NCBI GenBank assembly: GCA_043827405.1
Contig: JBDRPD010000054.1
Coordinates: 1 to 64,000 of the forward strand
Length of the DNA: 64,000 nt
DNA from: Elusimicrobiota bacterium
Lineage (GTDB): Bacteria; Elusimicrobiota; Elusimicrobia; UBA1565
Direction: 5' to 3'
The translations under genes and the position numbers were made by a program. The notes under the pieces were generated by a model that ran no database searches, had not been told where the DNA came from, and saw only the letters and a program-made list of their open reading frames with translations. Below are positions 55,198 through 62,622 of this stretch, one piece after another; the first letter of the stretch is position 1; the number at the start of each line of letters is the position of its first letter.

Positions 55198-55880
55198 CGC
55201 GCGCGCAAAGCGAGGCGATGCGGCGGGCGATGAAGGCGACGCCGATGTTTTCGGCGCTGGATAATAAATCCCTGGACCGCTTCATTAAGCGGAGCATGTC
55301 CCATTGTTTCCCCGCGGGCGAGGTTATCGTTGAGCCGGGCGAGCGCGCCGACCGTTTTTTTGTCGTCCTCTCCGGGAGCGTCAAGGTCTATAAGATTTCA
55401 CCGCGCGGAGACGAGCAGGTCCTGCATGTCTTCGGCGCCGGAAATACGTTCGGCGAGGCGGCGATGTGGATGGGGGGGAAGTTCCCGGCTTTTGCCGAAG
55501 CCGTGGAAGAAAGCCTGCTGCTGACCGTTCCTCAGACCGTGCTGCGCCAAGCAGTGGCCGATGATCCTGATCTAGCGCTTGGTATTATGGCGGGGCTGTC
55601 GTCCAAGCTGCGGGAGTTTGTACGGCTTATTGAAGACCTTTCACTCAAGGAGGTCCCCGCCCGCCTGGCCGGCGTACTGCTGCAGGAAGCGGAGTCCGCC
55701 GGCGCGAAGAAATTTAGGATGCGTCAGACCAAGCGGCAGCTTGCCGCCCGCATCGGCACCATCGCCGAGACCCTGAGCCGCGCGCTCAAGAAGCTTAAGG
55801 CCGCCGGCCTCATCGATGTGCAGGGGGCCGAGTTTACGATTCGCGACGCCGCGGCGCTCAAGAAGCTCTCCGAGTCCTAG
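55194..55880 (+). CDS. Crp/Fnr family transcriptional regulator (Dnr/HcpR-like, no N-terminal Cys cluster)
   Basis: VLSGSVKVYK, FGEAA, HTH LAARIGTIAETLSRAL. Confidence 0.9.
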   Translation: MTRAQSEAMRRAMKATPMFSALDNKSLDRFIKRSMSHCFPAGEVIVEPGERADRFFVVLSGSVKVYKISPRGDEQVLHVFGAGNTFGEAAMWMGGKFPAFAEAVEESLLLTVPQTVLRQAVADDPDLALGIMAGLSSKLREFVRLIEDLSLKEVPARLAGVLLQEAESAGAKKFRMRQTKRQLAARIGTIAETLSRALKKLKAAGLIDVQGAEFTIRDAAALKKLSES

Positions 55881-57184
55881 CGGCCGCGGAGCACGACGTC
55901 CGATGCACTGTGGTAGGTCGGGGTCTGCTCGCGGTTCTGCAGACGGGCCTCGTCCTGGACCTTGGGCTTGAGATAGTCGTAGAGGCTCTTGGTCGTCACG
56001 CTTCCCCTGCTGTCTTTGGCCTCGCCGTTAAGTCCCTTGAGGAGGAAATAGGTGAAGATGCCGTGGCCTTCTTCCTTGAGCGTGGTCGTGATCTCATTGC
56101 CGGAAGCCGCCGTCAGCAATGTAAGCTTGCCGCTTGGAGCCTGCCCCATATCGATCTGCGTTACCAATGGACGCGCTCCTGCGGCGAGGACCGAACGGCC
56201 TCCGGCGCCGGAAAAACAGGCGTCGAGGGCGACGACGATTTGCTTGGCTTTGAGCCCGTTTAAAGAGGCATAGAGATGTTCTACGGAATAGGCGGTCGTC
56301 TTGAGAAATTGAGCGTCCCCGTCCCATGGGACGAGGTAGGCTTTCCCCGTGGCGGGATCGGGCGCGCCGTGCCCCGAAAAATAGAAGAACACGTTTGAGT
56401 TCGGCTTGACGTTGAGCGGCAGCCACTCTTCCAGATACTTCCGAAGCCCCGTGCGGGTCGCGTTCTCGCCCGTCAGCAGCACCACGTGACGCTGGGGATA
56501 GCCCATCGCGGACAAGTGTCTCGCCATGGCCGCGGCGTCGCGTTCGGCGAACTGCGCAGCGGGAAGGTCTTTGTAGTCGTCGATGCCCACGACAAGAGCG
56601 AAGTCATCCGGACGCTCCGCCAGCTTGAATTTGGGATGGTCCATGTCGGACGTGAATTGCTTCGGGGGCGCGGGATCGGCAGCGACGGGCGCGGGCGTCT
56701 TTCGGGCCAGCCGGGCGGATCTTTTTGCCGCGAGTTCCGAGTAGGCCGGTGTCCCCGGTCCCAGGGCCCGCGCCAGGTCGGCCGCGATGAAGTCTCCGTT
56801 AACGCAGTATTTGTCGAATCCCTTACAGCGCGACTTGCCCGAATAAAGCCTTTTTCTGGTGTAGGCCGAGGTCGCCGTCACGTCCGGAAACATCGCGCTG
56901 GGGCTGAGGGTGAACTTGCCCATATTGTTTGTGATGGAAACGAAGACGTCGACGTCTTGCGCCTGGAAAGATCGGACGGCTTCCACGGAAGCGAAGATGT
57001 TGGCCATCCGCATCTTCTCCGCGGCTTCCTCGTTGAACCCTTCCTCCGGGCGGATGGGAAGAATACCCAGGGATAGATCCACCGGCTCGGGCGGCGGTAA
57101 GCCCGGCTGATGCGGTCCTCCCCCGGCGGCGCAGCCGCATAGGGCCGCGGCAAGCAATACTAGGAAAAACGGGGGGATGTTCAT
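55877..57184 (-). CDS. Caspase-like (peptidase C14) lipoprotein
   Basis: Lipobox-like ALCGC, ALVVGIDDY, FSGHG (His), LDACFSG (Cys), HGIFTYFLLKGL. Confidence 0.88.
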   Translation of the reverse strand: MNIPPFFLVLLAAALCGCAAGGGPHQPGLPPPEPVDLSLGILPIRPEEGFNEEAAEKMRMANIFASVEAVRSFQAQDVDVFVSITNNMGKFTLSPSAMFPDVTATSAYTRKRLYSGKSRCKGFDKYCVNGDFIAADLARALGPGTPAYSELAAKRSARLARKTPAPVAADPAPPKQFTSDMDHPKFKLAERPDDFALVVGIDDYKDLPAAQFAERDAAAMARHLSAMGYPQRHVVLLTGENATRTGLRKYLEEWLPLNVKPNSNVFFYFSGHGAPDPATGKAYLVPWDGDAQFLKTTAYSVEHLYASLNGLKAKQIVVALDACFSGAGGRSVLAAGARPLVTQIDMGQAPSGKLTLLTAASGNEITTTLKEEGHGIFTYFLLKGLNGEAKDSRGSVTTKSLYDYLKPKVQDEARLQNREQTPTYHSASDVVLRGR

Positions 57185-57250
57185 CGCTCCTTGCGCAAAG
57201 ACCACGAACGGATTCGTGACTAGCTTATCAAATGAGATGCCCGTCAGGGC

Positions 57251-59230
57251 TCAACGCCCCGCTTCAGCTTCAGCGCGCTTGCGGCGGAGCTCCCGGATGC
57301 GCTTCACGCGGACATAACGCAGGCGCTTGCGGTCCTGTTCCACGGCGGGCAGCATGTCGCCCAGGACGTTGAGGGCCGTCTGCGCCATGTCCAGGATGCG
57401 GTCGCCGGGGAGGATCATGGTGTAGACCTTGGTGATCTGGCCGGACTCAAGGCCCGTCTGGCGCAGGACCGGTTCGAGCAAGGTGATGTTGGAGGCGGGG
57501 ATGCCGGGCGCGCCCATGGCGATGACGAGGACCGCGAGGGCGGTGTTGAAATACTGCAGCAAGGTCGGCGCCGCGCCGAACATCGATAGGGCGTAAAACG
57601 CCGTCAGGCCCATGTAGAGCGCGGTGCCGTACATATTGAACACCCCGCCCAGCGGCACCACGGTGTTGCGGGTCTTCTTCGAGACGCCCATGGCCTTGAG
57701 GGCTTCCTTCTCGGTCGGCATCGTCGCGCTGCTCGAGGAGAGGCTGAAGCCGACGAGCGCGGCCTTGAGAATCTCCTTGAAGTCCTTGGCGCGCGCGCCG
57801 AAGCCGAAATAGGCGGCCAACAGCACGAGCATGCCGACGGCCATGCCGACGAAGGCGGTGATGTAGTAGCCGCCGAAAGAGCTCAACAGGCCCAGCCCGC
57901 CCGTGGCCATGGACATCGAGAGCAAGGTCGCGATGGCCGGCATGCCCACGATGTCGATGAATCGCGGGAAGACCTTATTGATGAGGTCGGTCGCCTTCTC
58001 TCCCAGCTTGCCGGCTTTCTCGATGAAGGGCGCGGTATGGCTGTTGATCGCAAGCCCGACTGCCCGGTCATAGATGCGGCGCAGCGCTCCCTTCCAGCCG
58101 GGCTTGTATTCGCGATTTACCGAGCCGTCGTTGACGCCGCGCGCGCGCTTGTAGATGAGCGCGGCGGCGGTGAACAGGCCGATGATCGGCAGCATGAACT
58201 GCATGGGGCTAAAGCCCCCGTCCGCCAGGCCGGGGATGGCCGCGGCCGCGAAGCTGGCCGGGTCGACGACCGGCAGCAAGGCCGTCATCGCCATGGTGAC
58301 GCCCGCCGAGATCGCCAGGCCCGCGGCGGTGATAACGAGAAAGCCCAGCAAGGTGCGCGATTCCTTGATGACGCTGTAATGCGCGAAGGACCGGTACACA
58401 TTGAGTCCGATGAAGGGCGCGGCCAGCCAGGGTAAAACGCCGAAAAACAGCCCGGGCATGAAGCTGAGGACCGGAAGCGTGCCGAGGTTGATGCCCGCCA
58501 AGCCCAGGGCGGCGCCTCCGGCGGCCGCGATCAGGAAGCGGTTCTCCTTGAGCATGCGCCAGCGCGAGGAGGGCGTCTTCCCCGGAGCCGGCGTCTTGAG
58601 TTCCGGCGCACTCCCCTTCTTGGCCGGGCCGCGCAGGCGCGAGAGACGGCTCGGCCGTTTATTTCCCGAATCAGCCGGCACCGGAGCGGCAGCGAAGCGC
58701 CGGCCGCTCTTCTCTGTGCCGCCGTCGAACATCGCGGCGAAGCGCTCGGTCTCTTCCCCGCTCACGGAGTCCGCCGCGGCGAGGGCCGATCGCGCCGGGA
58801 CGGCGAGAGCCTTAAGAACCGCGAGCGAAGTGCGCGGCCTTTCACGCGCGGCTTGCTTCCCCGGCGCCGGAATAATCGTTTTCGCTGCGGCACGCGGCAC
58901 GGCAATGCCGGTCCGGAGCGCCGGGGATACGGGAAGGCCCACCCCGATGACGGCCGCGCGCAGCGAAGAAGCCGGTGCGTTGGTCTTCAACTCCAGCGGG
59001 ATGTCAACGGTAGGAAGAACGCTCTTGAGGGACGGGGAGAGGCTCAGCGAAGAGCCGGGAGTCCCGACGAAACTGAGTCCGGCGACACCGCCCACCGCGG
59101 CCGCCGAAACCGCCGCTCCACCCGTCTTGACTGGAACAGTCGCGCGAATCGCCGCGAAGGCTTCCTGACCCTGCGCCAGGATGAGGGAAAAGGAAAGAGA
59201 AGCGGCGAGCAGCCGGCGAAGAATGGGCAT
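57251..59230 (-). CDS. Dicarboxylate/amino acid:cation symporter (DAACS/GltP family) with long N-terminal leader
   Basis: SSSSATMP, PLGGVFNMYGTA, GAPGIP, DRILDMAQTALNVLGD. Confidence 0.88.
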   Translation of the reverse strand: MPILRRLLAASLSFSLILAQGQEAFAAIRATVPVKTGGAAVSAAAVGGVAGLSFVGTPGSSLSLSPSLKSVLPTVDIPLELKTNAPASSLRAAVIGVGLPVSPALRTGIAVPRAAAKTIIPAPGKQAARERPRTSLAVLKALAVPARSALAAADSVSGEETERFAAMFDGGTEKSGRRFAAAPVPADSGNKRPSRLSRLRGPAKKGSAPELKTPAPGKTPSSRWRMLKENRFLIAAAGGAALGLAGINLGTLPVLSFMPGLFFGVLPWLAAPFIGLNVYRSFAHYSVIKESRTLLGFLVITAAGLAISAGVTMAMTALLPVVDPASFAAAAIPGLADGGFSPMQFMLPIIGLFTAAALIYKRARGVNDGSVNREYKPGWKGALRRIYDRAVGLAINSHTAPFIEKAGKLGEKATDLINKVFPRFIDIVGMPAIATLLSMSMATGGLGLLSSFGGYYITAFVGMAVGMLVLLAAYFGFGARAKDFKEILKAALVGFSLSSSSATMPTEKEALKAMGVSKKTRNTVVPLGGVFNMYGTALYMGLTAFYALSMFGAAPTLLQYFNTALAVLVIAMGAPGIPASNITLLEPVLRQTGLESGQITKVYTMILPGDRILDMAQTALNVLGDMLPAVEQDRKRLRYVRVKRIRELRRKRAEAEAGR

Positions 59231-59435
59231 CACGGCATTATAGTCCGATGCCCCGCCTACCATTACCGGCCGAAATGCCGTATCGTTCGCCGCTATCGGG
59301 CCTAGGCCGGATTGGGCCGGTGTGCCTATGACGCTGACCTCGAAAGGGTTCGGTAGGGGCCGATTAAAGATGTTGCTCGTCGTTGATGATTATCGAACTC
59401 CGTGGCTTTGAGTACTCGGCGACAGGCGGTAGATA

Positions 59436-59909
59436 TCAGTGCATAATTGGCTTTGACATCAGCGTGACTTCATTGCCTACGAGCGGACCATGAGCGCAAC
59501 GCTTTCGATTGACCACTTCCATGCCCAGGGACCTGTAGAAGGGAACACCATGACCGGTAGTCCCCAGGGTCACCTCTTGATGGCCCGAAGCTGAGATTAT
59601 TCGCTCCGCCTCGTAAAATAGAAGTTTGCCAATCCCTTGGCGATGGGTGGTCGGGTCAACATAGAGCTTGGTAATCTCGTTCTCTTTTACCGCCACTGCA
59701 CCAGCAACTTGGTCATCACATGCTACAAGCCATCGGTATTCCTTAAACTGGTGCCGAACGGCTTCTACCGAGCCCCGTTCTTTTAAGATTGCCGCAAGCT
59801 GTTCTGGGGAAAACCCATCTGGACCGGCAATAAAGCGATAGCAGGCGCATAGGATTTCGCTCACGCGAGGAATATCATTTTCCTGCATTGGGCGCACCGT
59901 GTAGCGCAT
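59436..59909 (-). CDS. GNAT family N-acetyltransferase (cassette cargo)
   Basis: LYVDPTTHRQGIGKLL acetyl-CoA motif, FYRSLG. Lower GC than the flanks. Confidence 0.85.
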   Translation of the reverse strand: MRYTVRPMQENDIPRVSEILCACYRFIAGPDGFSPEQLAAILKERGSVEAVRHQFKEYRWLVACDDQVAGAVAVKENEITKLYVDPTTHRQGIGKLLFYEAERIISASGHQEVTLGTTGHGVPFYRSLGMEVVNRKRCAHGPLVGNEVTLMSKPIMH

Positions 59910-59977
59910 AAGATAATGGTAGCAAAGTGAAAATCCTCCAGAGGGGGGGCTCTGTTCGGTTATAACCTGTTATAACT

Positions 59978-60093
59978 GCTGCCTGTCGTTGGCAGTATTA
60001 GAACTTGGGTCGAGGCCCAAAATAGCCTAGAAGTGCAGAATGTCGCGGTTTCGGCCGGTTATCCACAACCCGAATAGGACGTAATCAGAACCG
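59978..60093 (+). repeat. Direct repeat copy A (116 bp), att-like junction with recombinase C-terminal-like remnant
   Basis: Near-identical to 60899-61014. Reads LPVVGSIRTWVEAQNSLEVQNVAVSAGYPQPE* on the + strand. Confidence 0.85.
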
Positions 60094-60146
60094 GCCGAGG
60101 ACCGAAGCCCGCAAAGAGAGATGCCGCGATCAACCCTTGAACGAAA

Positions 60147-60175
60147 GGCCAGGCTCGGGAATCCCGAGCCTGGCC
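60147..60175. terminator. Strong hairpin, probable terminator of the ORF6N gene
   Basis: GGCCAGGCTCGGG-AAT-CCCGAGCCTGGCC. Confidence 0.55.
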
Positions 60176-60252
60176 CTCGTCGCAGCGCAGAAAATCCCTG
60201 AGCTTTTCATGGGTTCCGCAGGATCCGAATAGGACGGTGCTCGAACCGGGGA

Positions 60253-60771
60253 TTAGCCGGGCTTAAACCCGATCCTGCGCGGCGGCTCATCACCGGGTTC
60301 CATCAGGTCTCTGATTGCGTTGAAAAGAAGTCCGATTTTCTCATCGTGGTTTCCGACCCGCTTTTCCAGGTCCTTCAGTTTCCGCGCAAGTTCCTTGTGG
60401 GCGCCGATCAGTCGCCTGAGCCGGACGAAGGCTCGGGCTATCTGGACACTTGCCCGGACGGCCATGGGAGTATTCAGCACGCTTGCGAGCATCACGGCGC
60501 CGTGCTCAGTGAAGGCGTAGGGACGGTAGCGGCGTCCGCCTCGTCCTGTTTTTGAGGTCACAGATTGTGACCTCAAAGATTGGGTTTCCTTTTCGTTTAG
60601 CTGGAACATGAAATCCAGCGGGAAACGTCCTTCGTTTCTACGAACAGCTTGGTTTAGATGCCGCGTCAGAACGCCGTAGATTTGAGCGAGGTCCGCGTCC
60701 AGCATGACGCGATGGCCCCGGATCAGCAGGATACGCGGAGCAATCGTCTCCGGCCCGACGGGCAGTCCCAT
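60253..60771 (-). CDS. ORF6N domain DNA-binding protein
   Basis: IRGHRVMLDADLAQIYGV, RNEGRFPLDFMFQL, PYAFTEHGAVMLASVL, RRIGF. Confidence 0.9.
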   Translation of the reverse strand: MGLPVGPETIAPRILLIRGHRVMLDADLAQIYGVLTRHLNQAVRRNEGRFPLDFMFQLNEKETQSLRSQSVTSKTGRGGRRYRPYAFTEHGAVMLASVLNTPMAVRASVQIARAFVRLRRLIGAHKELARKLKDLEKRVGNHDEKIGLLFNAIRDLMEPGDEPPRRIGFKPG

Positions 60772-60898
60772 ACTACTTATACGAATGAGACTAGAAAATC
60801 GTTCCCGAAAATTTCGTAACGGACGAATAAGGCCCCCCACAGGGAGGGCCTTCGTGCTGTTCCCGTTTTCTAAGTGTTATTAGAACTTCTGAAAGATG

Positions 60899-61014
60899 GC
60901 TGCCCGTCGTTGGCGGTATTAGAACTTGGGCGGGGGCCGAAAATGGCCTGGAAGTGCAAAATATCGCAGTTTTAGCCGGTTATCCACAACCCGAATAGGA
61001 CAGTAATAGAACCG
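60899..61014 (+). repeat. Direct repeat copy B (116 bp), att-like junction with recombinase C-terminal-like remnant
   Basis: Near-identical to 59978-60093. Reads WLPVVGGIRTWAGAENGLEVQNIAVLAGYPQPE*. Confidence 0.85.
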
Positions 61015-61015
61015 A

Positions 61016-61573
61016 TCAGGTTCGATCCGGTTCATGCCGTGGCTGGAATCCGATTCGTTTCCGGGGCTTCTCGGGTATAGACATGAGTTGGCGTATCGAT
61101 TCGAATACAGCTCTGATCTCTTTCGCAATCTCCCCCAATTTGACGTCATGTCCGCCCAAACGGTGTTCGATTTTTGCCAGCCGTCTGGCAAGGTGTTTGT
61201 TTGCGGTCAGAACCTCCCTCAGCTCTACGAATACACGGATGATCGTGATGTTTACCTGGATAGCTTGAGGGCTGTTGAGGACGCTTGATAGCATGGCGAC
61301 CCCTTGCTCCGTGAATACAAAGGGCGGGTATTTCGCGTGAGCGCCGCGGCTCTTTAAGGTGCCAATCTGGCACCATAAAGCATCGGACTCCGTCTTGGTT
61401 AACTCGAACATGAAGTCGGGCGGAAACCGGGTGATGTTTCTTCGGACTTGCCGTTTGAGTTGCCTTACCTCGACTCCATAAAGTCGGGCAAGGTCGCTAT
61501 CCAACATGACTTTTCTCCCACGGATGAAATAGATCAACTCGGCGATCTGGGCAGCGGAGATGATAAGTGTCAT
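61016..61573 (-). CDS. ORF6N domain DNA-binding protein
   Basis: IRGRKVMLDSDLARLYGV, RNITRFPPDFMFEL, FTEQGVAMLSSVL, KRIGF. Confidence 0.9.
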   Translation of the reverse strand: MTLIISAAQIAELIYFIRGRKVMLDSDLARLYGVEVRQLKRQVRRNITRFPPDFMFELTKTESDALWCQIGTLKSRGAHAKYPPFVFTEQGVAMLSSVLNSPQAIQVNITIIRVFVELREVLTANKHLARRLAKIEHRLGGHDVKLGEIAKEIRAVFESIRQLMSIPEKPRKRIGFQPRHEPDRT

Positions 61574-61740
61574 GTGTTGCCCGGTGTCTGTGTAGCGCCT
61601 CGGTCCGACGCGGACGGTGCAGGTTTTGGATGGCAGCGCCCCATACCCATATATACGAATGAGAGAGCGGTTTGGTTCCCAAGAAAGAGAAGCCCTCCAG
61701 TAGGAGGGCTGGACCAATAAGCTCCGGTTCGTTTGGGAAG

Positions 61741-61764
61741 TGGCTGGCCGACTGGGATTCGAAC
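61741..61764 (-). other. tRNA 3'-end fragment (tRNA-Gln-like), probable att site
   Basis: Minus strand GTTCGAAT-CCCAG-TCGGCCA-G-CCA is a T-loop, 3' T-stem, acceptor strand, discriminator G and CCA. No matching 5' half upstream. Followed on the minus strand by the terminator AGCCCTCC/GGAGGGCT plus a T-rich tail. Confidence 0.7.
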
Positions 61765-61802
61765 TCGTTACCCGGCGTCCGCCTCGCCCATGGTCCCCGC
61801 CT

Positions 61803-61818
61803 CTTGACTTGAGTCAAG
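61803..61818 (+). promoter_or_regulatory. Fnr/Dnr/HcpR-type palindromic binding site
   Basis: CTTGACT-TG-AGTCAAG about 30 bp upstream of a GATAAT -10 element (class II position), ahead of an Fe-S gene. Confidence 0.7.
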
Positions 61819-61875
61819 GCGAATCTCCCGTCCACAAGTGATAATAATGGTAGAACCGATTTACCGGAGGGCGTC

Positions 61876-62622
61876 ATGGCGAAACTAGCGAGCAGAAAGA
61901 TCGTCCATATCGATGCGGAGAAGTGCGACGGCTGCGGCGCCTGCATTCCCAACTGCGCCGAGGGCGCAATCGAGATCATCAACGGTAAAGCGAAGCTGCT
62001 GGCTGAGAATTTGTGCGACGGCCTCGGCGCCTGCCTCGGTACCTGCCCGCAGGATGCGATCAGGGTCGAAGAGCGTCCGGCCGAGGACTTCAACGAAGAA
62101 GCGGTTGAGAAGCGGCTTAAGGAGATCGAGCGGAAGAAAGTTGCCAAGAAGAAGCCCGCCGCGTCGCCCTGCGGCTGTCCCGGCTCGGCGATGAAGATGT
62201 TCAACAAGGGACCAAACCCCTTCGCATCTTCCGCCAAGCCCGCGTCCGGCGGCCAGTCGCAGCTGCGGCATTGGCCGGTCCAGCTCATGCTGCTGCCCGA
62301 GGGCGGCCCGATCTGGGACGGCGCCGACGTTCTGCTCGCCGCCGACTGCGTGCCGTTCGCCCTGCCGGACTTCCAGAGCCGCCTGTTGGCCGGGAAATCC
62401 TTGGCCGTGGCCTGCCCCAAGCTCGACAATACGGAGTTCTACGTGGAGAAGCTGGCCCGCATCTTCGAGGCCAACGACATAAAGTCTTGGACCATTGCCC
62501 GCATGATGGTGCCCTGCTGCGGCGGCCTCGAGCAGATCACCCAGCTGGCTATGGAAAAGGCGGGCAAGGAGATACCCGTTAAGGTCGTGGTCGTCAGCCC
62601 GGACGGGCAGATACTGCAGTAG
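61876..62622 (+). CDS. 4Fe-4S binding (ferredoxin-like) protein
   Basis: CDGCGACIPNCAEG, CDGLGACLGTCP, CGCPG, WPVQL, AADC, CPKLD, VPCC. Confidence 0.88.
   Translation: MAKLASRKIVHIDAEKCDGCGACIPNCAEGAIEIINGKAKLLAENLCDGLGACLGTCPQDAIRVEERPAEDFNEEAVEKRLKEIERKKVAKKKPAASPCGCPGSAMKMFNKGPNPFASSAKPASGGQSQLRHWPVQLMLLPEGGPIWDGADVLLAADCVPFALPDFQSRLLAGKSLAVACPKLDNTEFYVEKLARIFEANDIKSWTIARMMVPCCGGLEQITQLAMEKAGKEIPVKVVVVSPDGQILQ

Follow-up and report, generated by a model that had tools for sequence, protein, structure and literature searches.

The DNA examined here is a stretch of 64,000 nucleotides from a bacterium of the phylum Elusimicrobiota (GenBank assembly GCA_043827405.1, hereafter genome G000), comprising positions 1–64,000 of contig JBDRPD010000054.1 (hereafter C54); this whole stretch is termed the window, and coordinates without a contig name refer to it. 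Toward its right end lies an array of three small units, W1, W2 and W3 (606, 921 and 844 bp), bounded by four junctions, J1 to J4. Each unit carries one gene on the minus strand: a GNAT acetyltransferase gene in W1 (59436–59909; 157 aa; PF13673, E = 1.7e-15) and ORF6N genes (PF10543) in W2 (60253–60771; 172 aa from the ATG at 60771) and W3 (61016–61573; 185 aa from the ATG at 61573), both ORF6N products falling into the PADLOC candidate family PDC-S05 and sharing 46% identity. A preliminary description had seen here an integron-like row of cassettes at a tRNA-Gln-derived attachment (att) site, and its division of the locus into three units of about 0.6–0.9 kb with one GNAT and two ORF6N genes agrees with the profile matches. 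Likewise, the claim that the window contains no recombinase gene held, as serine and tyrosine recombinases were searched for throughout the genome and none was detected inside it; no tRNA gene was called within the window either. W1–W3 contain no integration or transfer genes and have kept att sites at both ends, a feature of cis-mobilizable elements (CIMEs). The GC content of the units (0.51–0.56) is lower than that of the flanking genes (0.63–0.64). Contigs of one sequencing run, possibly the source of this DNA, cover 58800–62400 in three overlapping pieces with one letter different, and the read runs X2, X3 and X6 contained small shares only, without habitat or strain evidence.

Structure of the junctions and units

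J1 (59339–59401, plus strand), the outermost junction, consists of a left arm of about 30 nt followed by a P'-type arm reading MLLVVDDYRT from 59370, with crossover presumably at the TG at 59374–59375. A near-identical copy of the J1 arm (91% over 34 nt) is found at C54:140875. J2 and its 118-nt left-end module (59976–60095, plus strand) encode a 33-codon peptide resembling the tail of a large serine recombinase (LSR) and end in a core-altered copy of an att arm (60063–60094); the junction peptide LLPVVGSIRT starts at 59976 rather than at 59975 as first given. J3 and its left-end module (60897–61015, plus strand) read WLPVVGGIRTW... from 60897 and also contain a core-altered att arm (60984), the left end being 88% identical to locus L265 of genome G003. 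J4 (61741–61764, minus strand) is a 24-nt, tRNA-Gln-like 3' fragment with attB-type spacing, where the peptide WLADWDSN described for 61741 is in place, as are those of J1 and J3. The preliminary description had grouped all four junctions together, but J4 is another kind of joint than J1–J3, with the spacing of a tRNA arm and a score of −3.9 on the junction matrix introduced below. A GC hairpin, said to mark each of the four, is clear at J3 and J4, but weak at J2 and rudimentary at J1, and the GTTC preceding the peptide motif is present, albeit out of register, starting 22, 22, 38 and 14 nt ahead of it.

The right end of W1 (59930–59975, plus strand) has a weak hairpin and a degenerate P arm and does not match the hairpin pattern of the family described below. 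The W2 right end (60772–60896, plus strand), 79% identical to that of unit K2 in a second array of this genome, combines an ORF6N leader motif, a hairpin (60829–60852) and a P arm; the W3 right end (61620–61740, plus strand) has the same leader motif, a terminator-like hairpin (61691–61710) with its T-tail on the minus strand, and a P arm. Inside W2, we found a cryptic joint (60147–60249, plus strand) made up of a perfect 13-bp hairpin (60147–60175), a K2-type left-end tail from about 60187 and a core-altered arm (60218–60249). W2 is a composite of the J2 left end, the 13-bp hairpin and a K2-type left-end tail whose core is gone. The three extra core-altered att-arm copies (60063, 60218 and 60984) score 13.9–17.8 bits, versus a background of 0.03 per kb, and among 18 left ends of the J2/J3 type, 13 have a copy 87 nt past the junction. 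An attP model with perfect symmetry was tried and did not fit J1 or J2. The palindrome GTTATAAC is tandemly copied at 59959–59977 in the J2 P arm, which may have damaged that arm. As to the suggestion that every unit has its own promoter, a leader motif is indeed common to both ORF6N units and their relatives, but a sigma-70 scan returned no minus-strand site (two plus-strand matches versus 1.3 ± 1.0 in shuffles) and no common GNAT leader was found.

A weight matrix trained on 30 junctions, all from other genomes, gave as its eight best matches in the 4.3-Mb genome J3 (38.4 bits), K1, K2, J2, C15:23488, K3, C99:50008 and J1 (17.0 bits), K1–K3 being the junctions of the second array; the next score was 13.9 bits. 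Since a matrix built from other genomes places J3, J2 and J1 in the genome's top eight, the junction motif is more than a chance resemblance. Four of the five top matches outside the window are junctions of the same kind. The remaining one, C99:50008 (17.6 bits), lies outside known arrays. A matrix of the P arm only did not separate junctions from background.

A family of LSRs with junction-like ends

On contig C32 of G000, an LSR gene overlaps the tRNA-Gln(CTG) gene (C32:52156–52229) with its 3' end, the two being on opposite strands. This LSR gene, the sole member of its family in G000, is partial, being cut by the contig end; its tip at the tRNA reads ...PFDLWAEGHRSARWLPD* (also written ...KMPFDLWAEGHRSARWLPD*), the P-F...E-G codons of which form a 10-bp hairpin. 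Homologues of the C32 protein are complete LSRs, about 500 aa long, that have the resolvase, recombinase and zinc-ribbon domains (PF00239, PF07508, PF13408), the catalytic serine and invariant R16/S18. Gene ends in this family overlap tRNA 3' ends: a tRNA gene adjoins the LSR tip at 10 of 14 other order-level loci and, within the wider genome collection, at 65 of 80 loci, the tRNA being Arg in 36, Pro in 9, Asn in 7, Gln in 6 and another in 7. Other full-length family members terminate in tails of the junction type, such as WLAVVADYRTW (P0010) and WWPVCDAIRTW (P0016). Because these tails are peptides of the same kind, the right half of J1–J3 is the attP-form LSR tail, split off from its gene by integration, and the left half is the gene tip. 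A recombinase carrying these ends, which the preliminary description had left to be sought, thus exists as an LSR family with one member in G000 at tRNA-Gln(CTG).

The arms of the two joint types differ in the position of a GAAC motif, whose offset is 11 in 23 of 30 junction (P') arms versus 6 in 37 of 37 tRNA arms (40 loci). This 5-bp outward shift corresponds to the zinc-domain shift between attP and attB set out in PMC3783163, and GAAC would be the zinc-domain contact. Conservation suggests that crossover takes place at the invariant TG (positions 5–6).

Some further recombinases were noted. A second LSR subfamily occurs at the same tRNA-Gln site, with the tip MKLTLRPLPDLG...FDERLNWLRD (L199, L203, L217, L222, L192–L194), and a tip of the MKLTLRPLPDLG type also adjoins J2/J3-type left ends (L271, L272). 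At the Acidobacteriota LSR loci L082, L084, L097, L113, L115, L118 and L126 the tip is followed by a partial tRNA and by no intact one; orphan tRNA fragments may not be limited to Elusimicrobiota. In G000 itself, C84:35735–37378 and C59:840–2546 encode two full-length LSRs that are related to each other and belong to another family; a small helix-turn-helix/excisionase-like gene comes after each of them. We rejected them as the cognate enzyme, as they gave distant matches only and have no tRNA at their ends. ARAGORN called no tRNA-Asn in the assembly, Asn being another target of the LSR family. A metagenome scan with the partial LSR returned one weak, unrelated locus.

Related units at tRNA-Gln genes of other genomes

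We inspected 55 tRNA-Gln flanks from the same order (40 + 11 fetched and four reached via the LSR search; some are short or Gln(TTG)). At least one internal junction was present at 20 of these loci, delimiting 44 units of 372–15,900 bp (median about 1.5 kb, mostly with one to few genes), all in the same orientation, with one match on the opposite strand. An LSR match was absent from 42 of the 44, the two exceptions measuring 7.8 and 15.9 kb. The right ends of the LSR-less units carry stems of at least 7 bp in 32 of 42 cases versus 13 of 210 control windows, and a common hairpin pattern in 27 of 42 versus 3 of 1101 controls; the same pattern recurs at 6 of 12 LSR tips compared, a set that includes one mis-picked stretch, and the unit hairpins look like derivatives of the LSR tip. 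Some LSR-less units (L186_1, L242_0, L266, L269) have kept nothing of the LSR but its tip codons.

The left ends are likewise shared among units of different content. At least five units in other genomes begin with a J2/J3-type left end followed by unrelated cargo, and when 100 other genomes were searched for a 29-mer from this end, 13 of them, belonging to three families, had it at a total of 16 sites (control 0). The homology between genomes G046 and G057 (92.6%) breaks off precisely at a junction, and two units are found again elsewhere in arrays. One unit of 717 bp corresponds to the left 638 bp of a 9.2-kb element (78% identity) and also, at 88%, to the left end of an element that carries an LSR. 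Tandem ORF6N units also exist in G077 and G008. The genomes thus contain a junction family, an LSR family and units in which ends and cargo are mixed in modular fashion; same ends with different cargo, and units at other positions, bear out the earlier expectation that content would differ between relatives rather than reflect simple duplication. Among 76 cargo proteins scanned were caspase-domain proteins, a heavy-metal ATPase, arsenic permeases, kinases, Fic and ORF6N proteins and many unknowns; the cargo is varied and not mainly defence. Viral contigs gave no match to the junction pattern.

ORF6N genes were considered as a cassette-specific marker and rejected as such: only four of the nine copies in G000 lie inside arrays, and a junction within 1.5 kb was present at only one of 29 loci found with W2 DNA, that one having been found via the junction itself.

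J4 and orphan tRNA-Gln fragments

The 24-mer at J4 is identical in 20 positions (four differences) to the end of the G000 tRNA-Gln(CTG), and its tRNA likeness ends right after GAAC, with none beyond (z −0.4). It yielded neither a tRNA call nor an Rfam tRNA signal, no match at up to two mismatches in 350 other genomes of the phylum and no exact match in viral contigs. The intact tRNA ending in TCGGCCAGCCA that the preliminary description had envisaged was found neither in G000 nor, at up to two mismatches, in 350 relatives. The proposed derivation of the site from tRNA-Gln is supported, J4 appearing as an orphan relic of such a gene, but the array is not located at a tRNA gene.

Such relics are not confined to the window. 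G003 repeats the arrangement at another place, where a left end 88% identical to that of J3 precedes an ORF6N gene, a hairpin and a tRNA-Gln fragment; a stretch of 16 kb around them contains no tRNA. When 101 genomes were searched with a fragment pattern, there were about 30 matches that were not obviously tRNA genes (the reversed control pattern gave two matches in all); among 20 that were fetched, two were real tRNAs and 18 were orphan fragments in 15 genomes. On the left of 11 of these 18 we found an LSR (2), an LSR tip, further junctions, the family hairpin or ORF6N, and near-complete LSR genes adjoin the fragments in L284 and L293. Counting the G003 locus and J4 as well, exact tRNA identity ends 0–2 nt past GAAC in 20 of 20 orphans, a figure to be read with the proviso that the search pattern itself forces the match up to GAAC. 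Beyond this point, one of the 20 keeps a faint tRNA likeness (z 3.5), and homology among the right flanks is limited to two pairs. The boundary coincides with both the predicted end of the attB arm and the T-loop. Pseudo-attB sites arisen by chance are disfavoured as the general origin of these fragments, because the reversed control gave only two matches in 101 genomes; such an origin is possible for J4 alone, which is more degenerate. At L283 (G001:C50, near 80430–80490) two tRNA relics lie next to each other without a tRNA call, one Gln-like and the other, judged by eye, probably Asn-like.

A second array in the same genome

Further along C54, at 140875–143690 (L001:6876–9691), a second array has the order K1-ORF6N-K2-ORF6N-K3, followed by an XerD-like gene, radC and the contig end. 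The cargo of K2 and W2 is 85% identical at the amino acid level (the W2 protein versus the ORF6N gene at C54:141723–142241), while their left ends are different. This array may be the far end of the C32 LSR island, although the contig join is unproven. The XerD-like gene (C54:142520) was rejected as a mobilizer, as it is itself enclosed in a unit and none of the 55 tRNA-Gln loci has a tyrosine recombinase nearby. A lone junction of the family, FLPRLDKLRTW, occurs at C15:23488 after a low-GC AAA_14/DUF4143 gene, with no tRNA nearby.

Discussion

The array consists of three recombinase-less cassettes joined by att junctions of a tRNA-Gln-targeting LSR, and we consider it fairly probable that each was inserted separately in trans, by an LSR encoded elsewhere, at an orphan tRNA fragment, the predicted target. 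According to the mechanism we propose, attP would lie within the last LSR codons of the circular form, and crossover, probably at the invariant TG, would leave the gene tip beside the tRNA, its hairpin replacing the tRNA terminator, while the tail codons would come to lie at the far end. Internal deletion of LSR islands would give rise to mini-elements composed of a tail-coding P' arm, cargo, and a hairpin plus P arm. These could circularize and re-insert with an LSR acting in trans, for which the C32 LSR at tRNA-Gln(CTG) would be the best candidate. If the tRNA-side joint stayed a usable target, units would accrete in one orientation, and if about 20 tRNA bases sufficed, orphan fragments might seed arrays away from the tRNA gene, as in the window. 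A more far-reaching version, which we offer as a tentative thought, is a portable-target, integron-like mode of gene capture, in which mini-cassettes with LSR ends, resembling miniature inverted-repeat transposable elements (MITEs), are shuffled in trans, a tRNA-Gln arm of 20–25 nt is copied to unrelated chromosomal sites, and the resulting arrays often carry ORF6N candidate-defence genes.

Several points weigh against separate insertion in trans. Neither an excision joint nor a circle nor an empty site was seen in the contigs to which the analysis was confined, and G000 is alone in its genus, leaving no congeneric genome for a gain/loss comparison. The C32 LSR is not demonstrably intact, as the gene ends at the contig end. 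According to PMC3783163, textbook serine integrases use attL again only in the presence of a directionality factor, and accretion at the tRNA-side joint would therefore require relaxed directionality. The P arms of J1, J2 and K2 are weak (3.4–4.0 bits), and together with the four mismatches at J4 this means that the window array may now be dead. Seven of the 18 orphan fragments, one of them at a contig end, lack any feature of the system, and the count of 44 units is partly circular, since 30 of its junctions trained the matrix; four of the 55 loci had moreover been picked via LSRs. In G046 and G057, the tRNA-proximal unit is the common one and the distal units differ, the reverse of strict proximal accretion. 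Finally, the ratio of nonsynonymous to synonymous polymorphism (pN/pS) of the left-end tail, 0.59 over codons 11–32 (computed from the 10 of 18 sequences retained), agrees with an origin in translated LSR tails and is silent on trans-mobility.

The main rival to trans movement, although we regard it as unlikely, is decay in place as in classical CIME accretion, according to which full LSR islands inserted one after the other, lost their recombinase after insertion and have since moved passively or with a neighbour. This is the published route for tandem CIMEs (PMC5704250) and the reading given in PMC3146451 for 15 module-less Dehalococcoides ssrA islands. It is in line with apparent intermediates that have LSR tips of 30–60 aa without the rest of the gene (L266, L269, L281, L292), with the homology of the 717-bp unit to the left end of the 9.2-kb element, and with the accumulation of core-altered att arms inside W2. 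However, a larger LSR remnant is present in none of the 42 units without an LSR, the right ends of these units have a family of short-loop hairpins in common across genera, on which they converge, homologous units recur junction-to-junction at different positions, and tandem ORF6N units recur in G077 and G008. Such features would not readily arise from separate deletions in place.

We find it improbable that the units were built at a real tRNA-Gln gene and that the block was later moved by a tyrosine integrase of the T-loop type or by illegitimate transfer, J4 being the displaced fragment and nothing having ever been inserted at the present location. Displaced tRNA fragments are the standard signature of tyrosine integrases (PMC4383910), the uniform end of the orphans 0–2 nt past GAAC is also a T-loop position, and at L240 a fragment 508 bp from the tRNA forms the left end of a 0.5-kb DUF4160/DUF2442 unit. 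All J and K junctions on C54 also point in one direction, namely to the end of C54 at which it may be connected with the contig of the tRNA, a connection that is unproven. Yet no tyrosine recombinase was found within 2.5 kb of the 55 tRNA-Gln loci or at the 20 fragment loci (about 1.5 kb of right flank fetched). Moreover, the CRP/FNR-family and Fe-S genes that flank the array on the left and right are adjacent in G006 and 1.7 kb apart in G003, which indicates that the array sits in ordinary chromosome and that its right flank is not the end of an island.

In integrons, attC sites have inverted RYYYAAC...GTTRRRY cores that form one long hairpin. An integrase-less attC array (CALIN) or a local tandem duplication, suggested by the single-gene, mostly co-oriented 0.6–0.9 kb units and by a 116-nt direct repeat (84%), can be dismissed as very improbable, given that J1–J4 have neither such a core pair nor a hairpin spanning the junctions, that no integron integrase exceeds the cut-off in the genome, and that the two ORF6N proteins are so divergent and the GNAT gene unrelated to them. 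Fold z-scores of J1–J4 were −0.12, −2.55, −1.16 and −0.78, the J2 value stemming from short local stems. The best IntI piece scored 77 bits on TIGR02249 versus a cut-off of 265, and a nearby tyrosine recombinase is XerD-like; as the genome is 98% complete, the absence of IntI is not absolute. The array resembles integron/CALIN arrays in having single-gene cassettes in a row without a local integrase, and differs in lacking attC cores or hairpin and IntI, its joints being double-stranded serine-recombinase sites. The distinction from attC integrons drawn in the preliminary description was thus well founded.

The nearest precedent of the system is found in the Dehalococcoides ssrA islands, with CIME accretion as the general frame. 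According to PMC3146451, and as in the present case, these islands follow one another at the 3' terminus of a structural RNA gene and belong to a serine recombinase of about 500 aa (DsiB), the gene of which overlaps attL with its 3' end and borrows a stop codon from the adjoining sequence; many (15 there) lack the six-gene integration module of DsiB, DsiA, RecF-like, ParBc, Mom-like and other proteins. No such module was seen in the present system, though it was not specifically sought. The present system differs in targeting tRNA-Gln (the LSR family also Asn, Arg, Pro and others) instead of tmRNA, in its standardized hairpin ends and asymmetric att arms compared with 20-bp direct repeats, in its one-to-few-gene units and in having arrays at orphan fragments as well, remote from the RNA gene. 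The tmRNA gene of G000 is on C83. With CIMEs and ICESt1-type accretion (PMC5704250) it has in common the lost integrase, the retention of both att sites and the tandem position at a gene 3' end; unlike in CIMEs, the recombinase is of the serine type and attP is in its own gene, and mobility in trans rather than only in cis is suggested by ends that are common across families and shuffled against cargo. As regards movement in cis, the window has no autonomous element adjacent to the array, the nearest family LSR being on another contig, and the contigs showed no excision joint.

Prochlorococcus tycheposons (10.1101/2020.12.28.424599) likewise target tRNA genes, with new arrivals pushing older ones outward and partial tRNAs left scattered, and 27 of 937 use a large serine recombinase. 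They encode their own integrase, mostly tyrosine-type, and often replication genes; such hallmarks (own integrase plus replication or packaging) are absent from W1–W3, which encode only GNAT or ORF6N. The LSRs share the resolvase, recombinase and zinc-ribbon architecture and the 5-bp attP/attB shift with large serine integrases of the LI/A118 type, from which, on the account in PMC3783163 cited above, repeated use of the tRNA-side joint would set them apart by implying weaker directionality. Serine recombinases were not known to target tRNA genes according to the Islander authors (PMC4383910), so that a broad LSR family aimed at tRNA 3' ends would fill a stated gap. The word tRNA has 0 occurrences in the main text of an LSR survey (PMC10083194); its attB tables and the TIGER/Islander databases may already list tRNA-targeting LSRs. 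A literature search of partial coverage gave no account of such mini-cassettes or orphan-fragment arrays in Elusimicrobiota.

If insertion in trans is correct, the array represents integron-like capture of single genes without attC or an adjacent integrase, a route that would escape island finders relying on tyrosine integrases and direct repeats of tRNA sequence. The attP/attB pairs, each about 50 bp long and with a target that seems to be one-sided, are testable, could serve studies of LSR directionality and might be developed into integration tools. The junctions would also account for a class of short ORFs and C-terminal tails (WLP..D.RT, WLP.DSN) that appear spuriously when metagenomes are annotated.

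Genes flanking the array

To the right, a palindrome (TTGAC-N4-GTCAA; 61804–61817, no strand assigned) lies outside the array before the Fe-S gene; in G006, the same palindrome directly follows the CRP/FNR-family gene, the window counterpart of which ends at 55880. The terminal bases of that window gene (55870–55880; CGAGTCCTAG) are the same as 10 nt of the T-arm of tRNA-Gln(CTG), read in the sense direction. They mark the left edge of the insert as judged by comparison with G006, but their orientation is wrong for a direct repeat, and we regard this match as probably due to chance.

The gene for a sodium:dicarboxylate symporter (SDF; 57251–59326) has a long low-complexity N-terminus, and homology of the gene and its leader to relatives stops at 59310–59326, beside J1. 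None of six other SDF loci has a junction that would mark the gene as a further cassette. Its patchy occurrence (7 of 101 genomes), combined with 82–86% identity between families and with surroundings that are unrelated, points to transfer by some other route. Between the CRP/FNR-family gene and the SDF gene, a caspase-domain gene (55877–57205) overlaps the CRP/FNR stop codon; it has about 14 paralogues in G000, and its homologues are frequent cargo of tRNA-Gln units in relatives.

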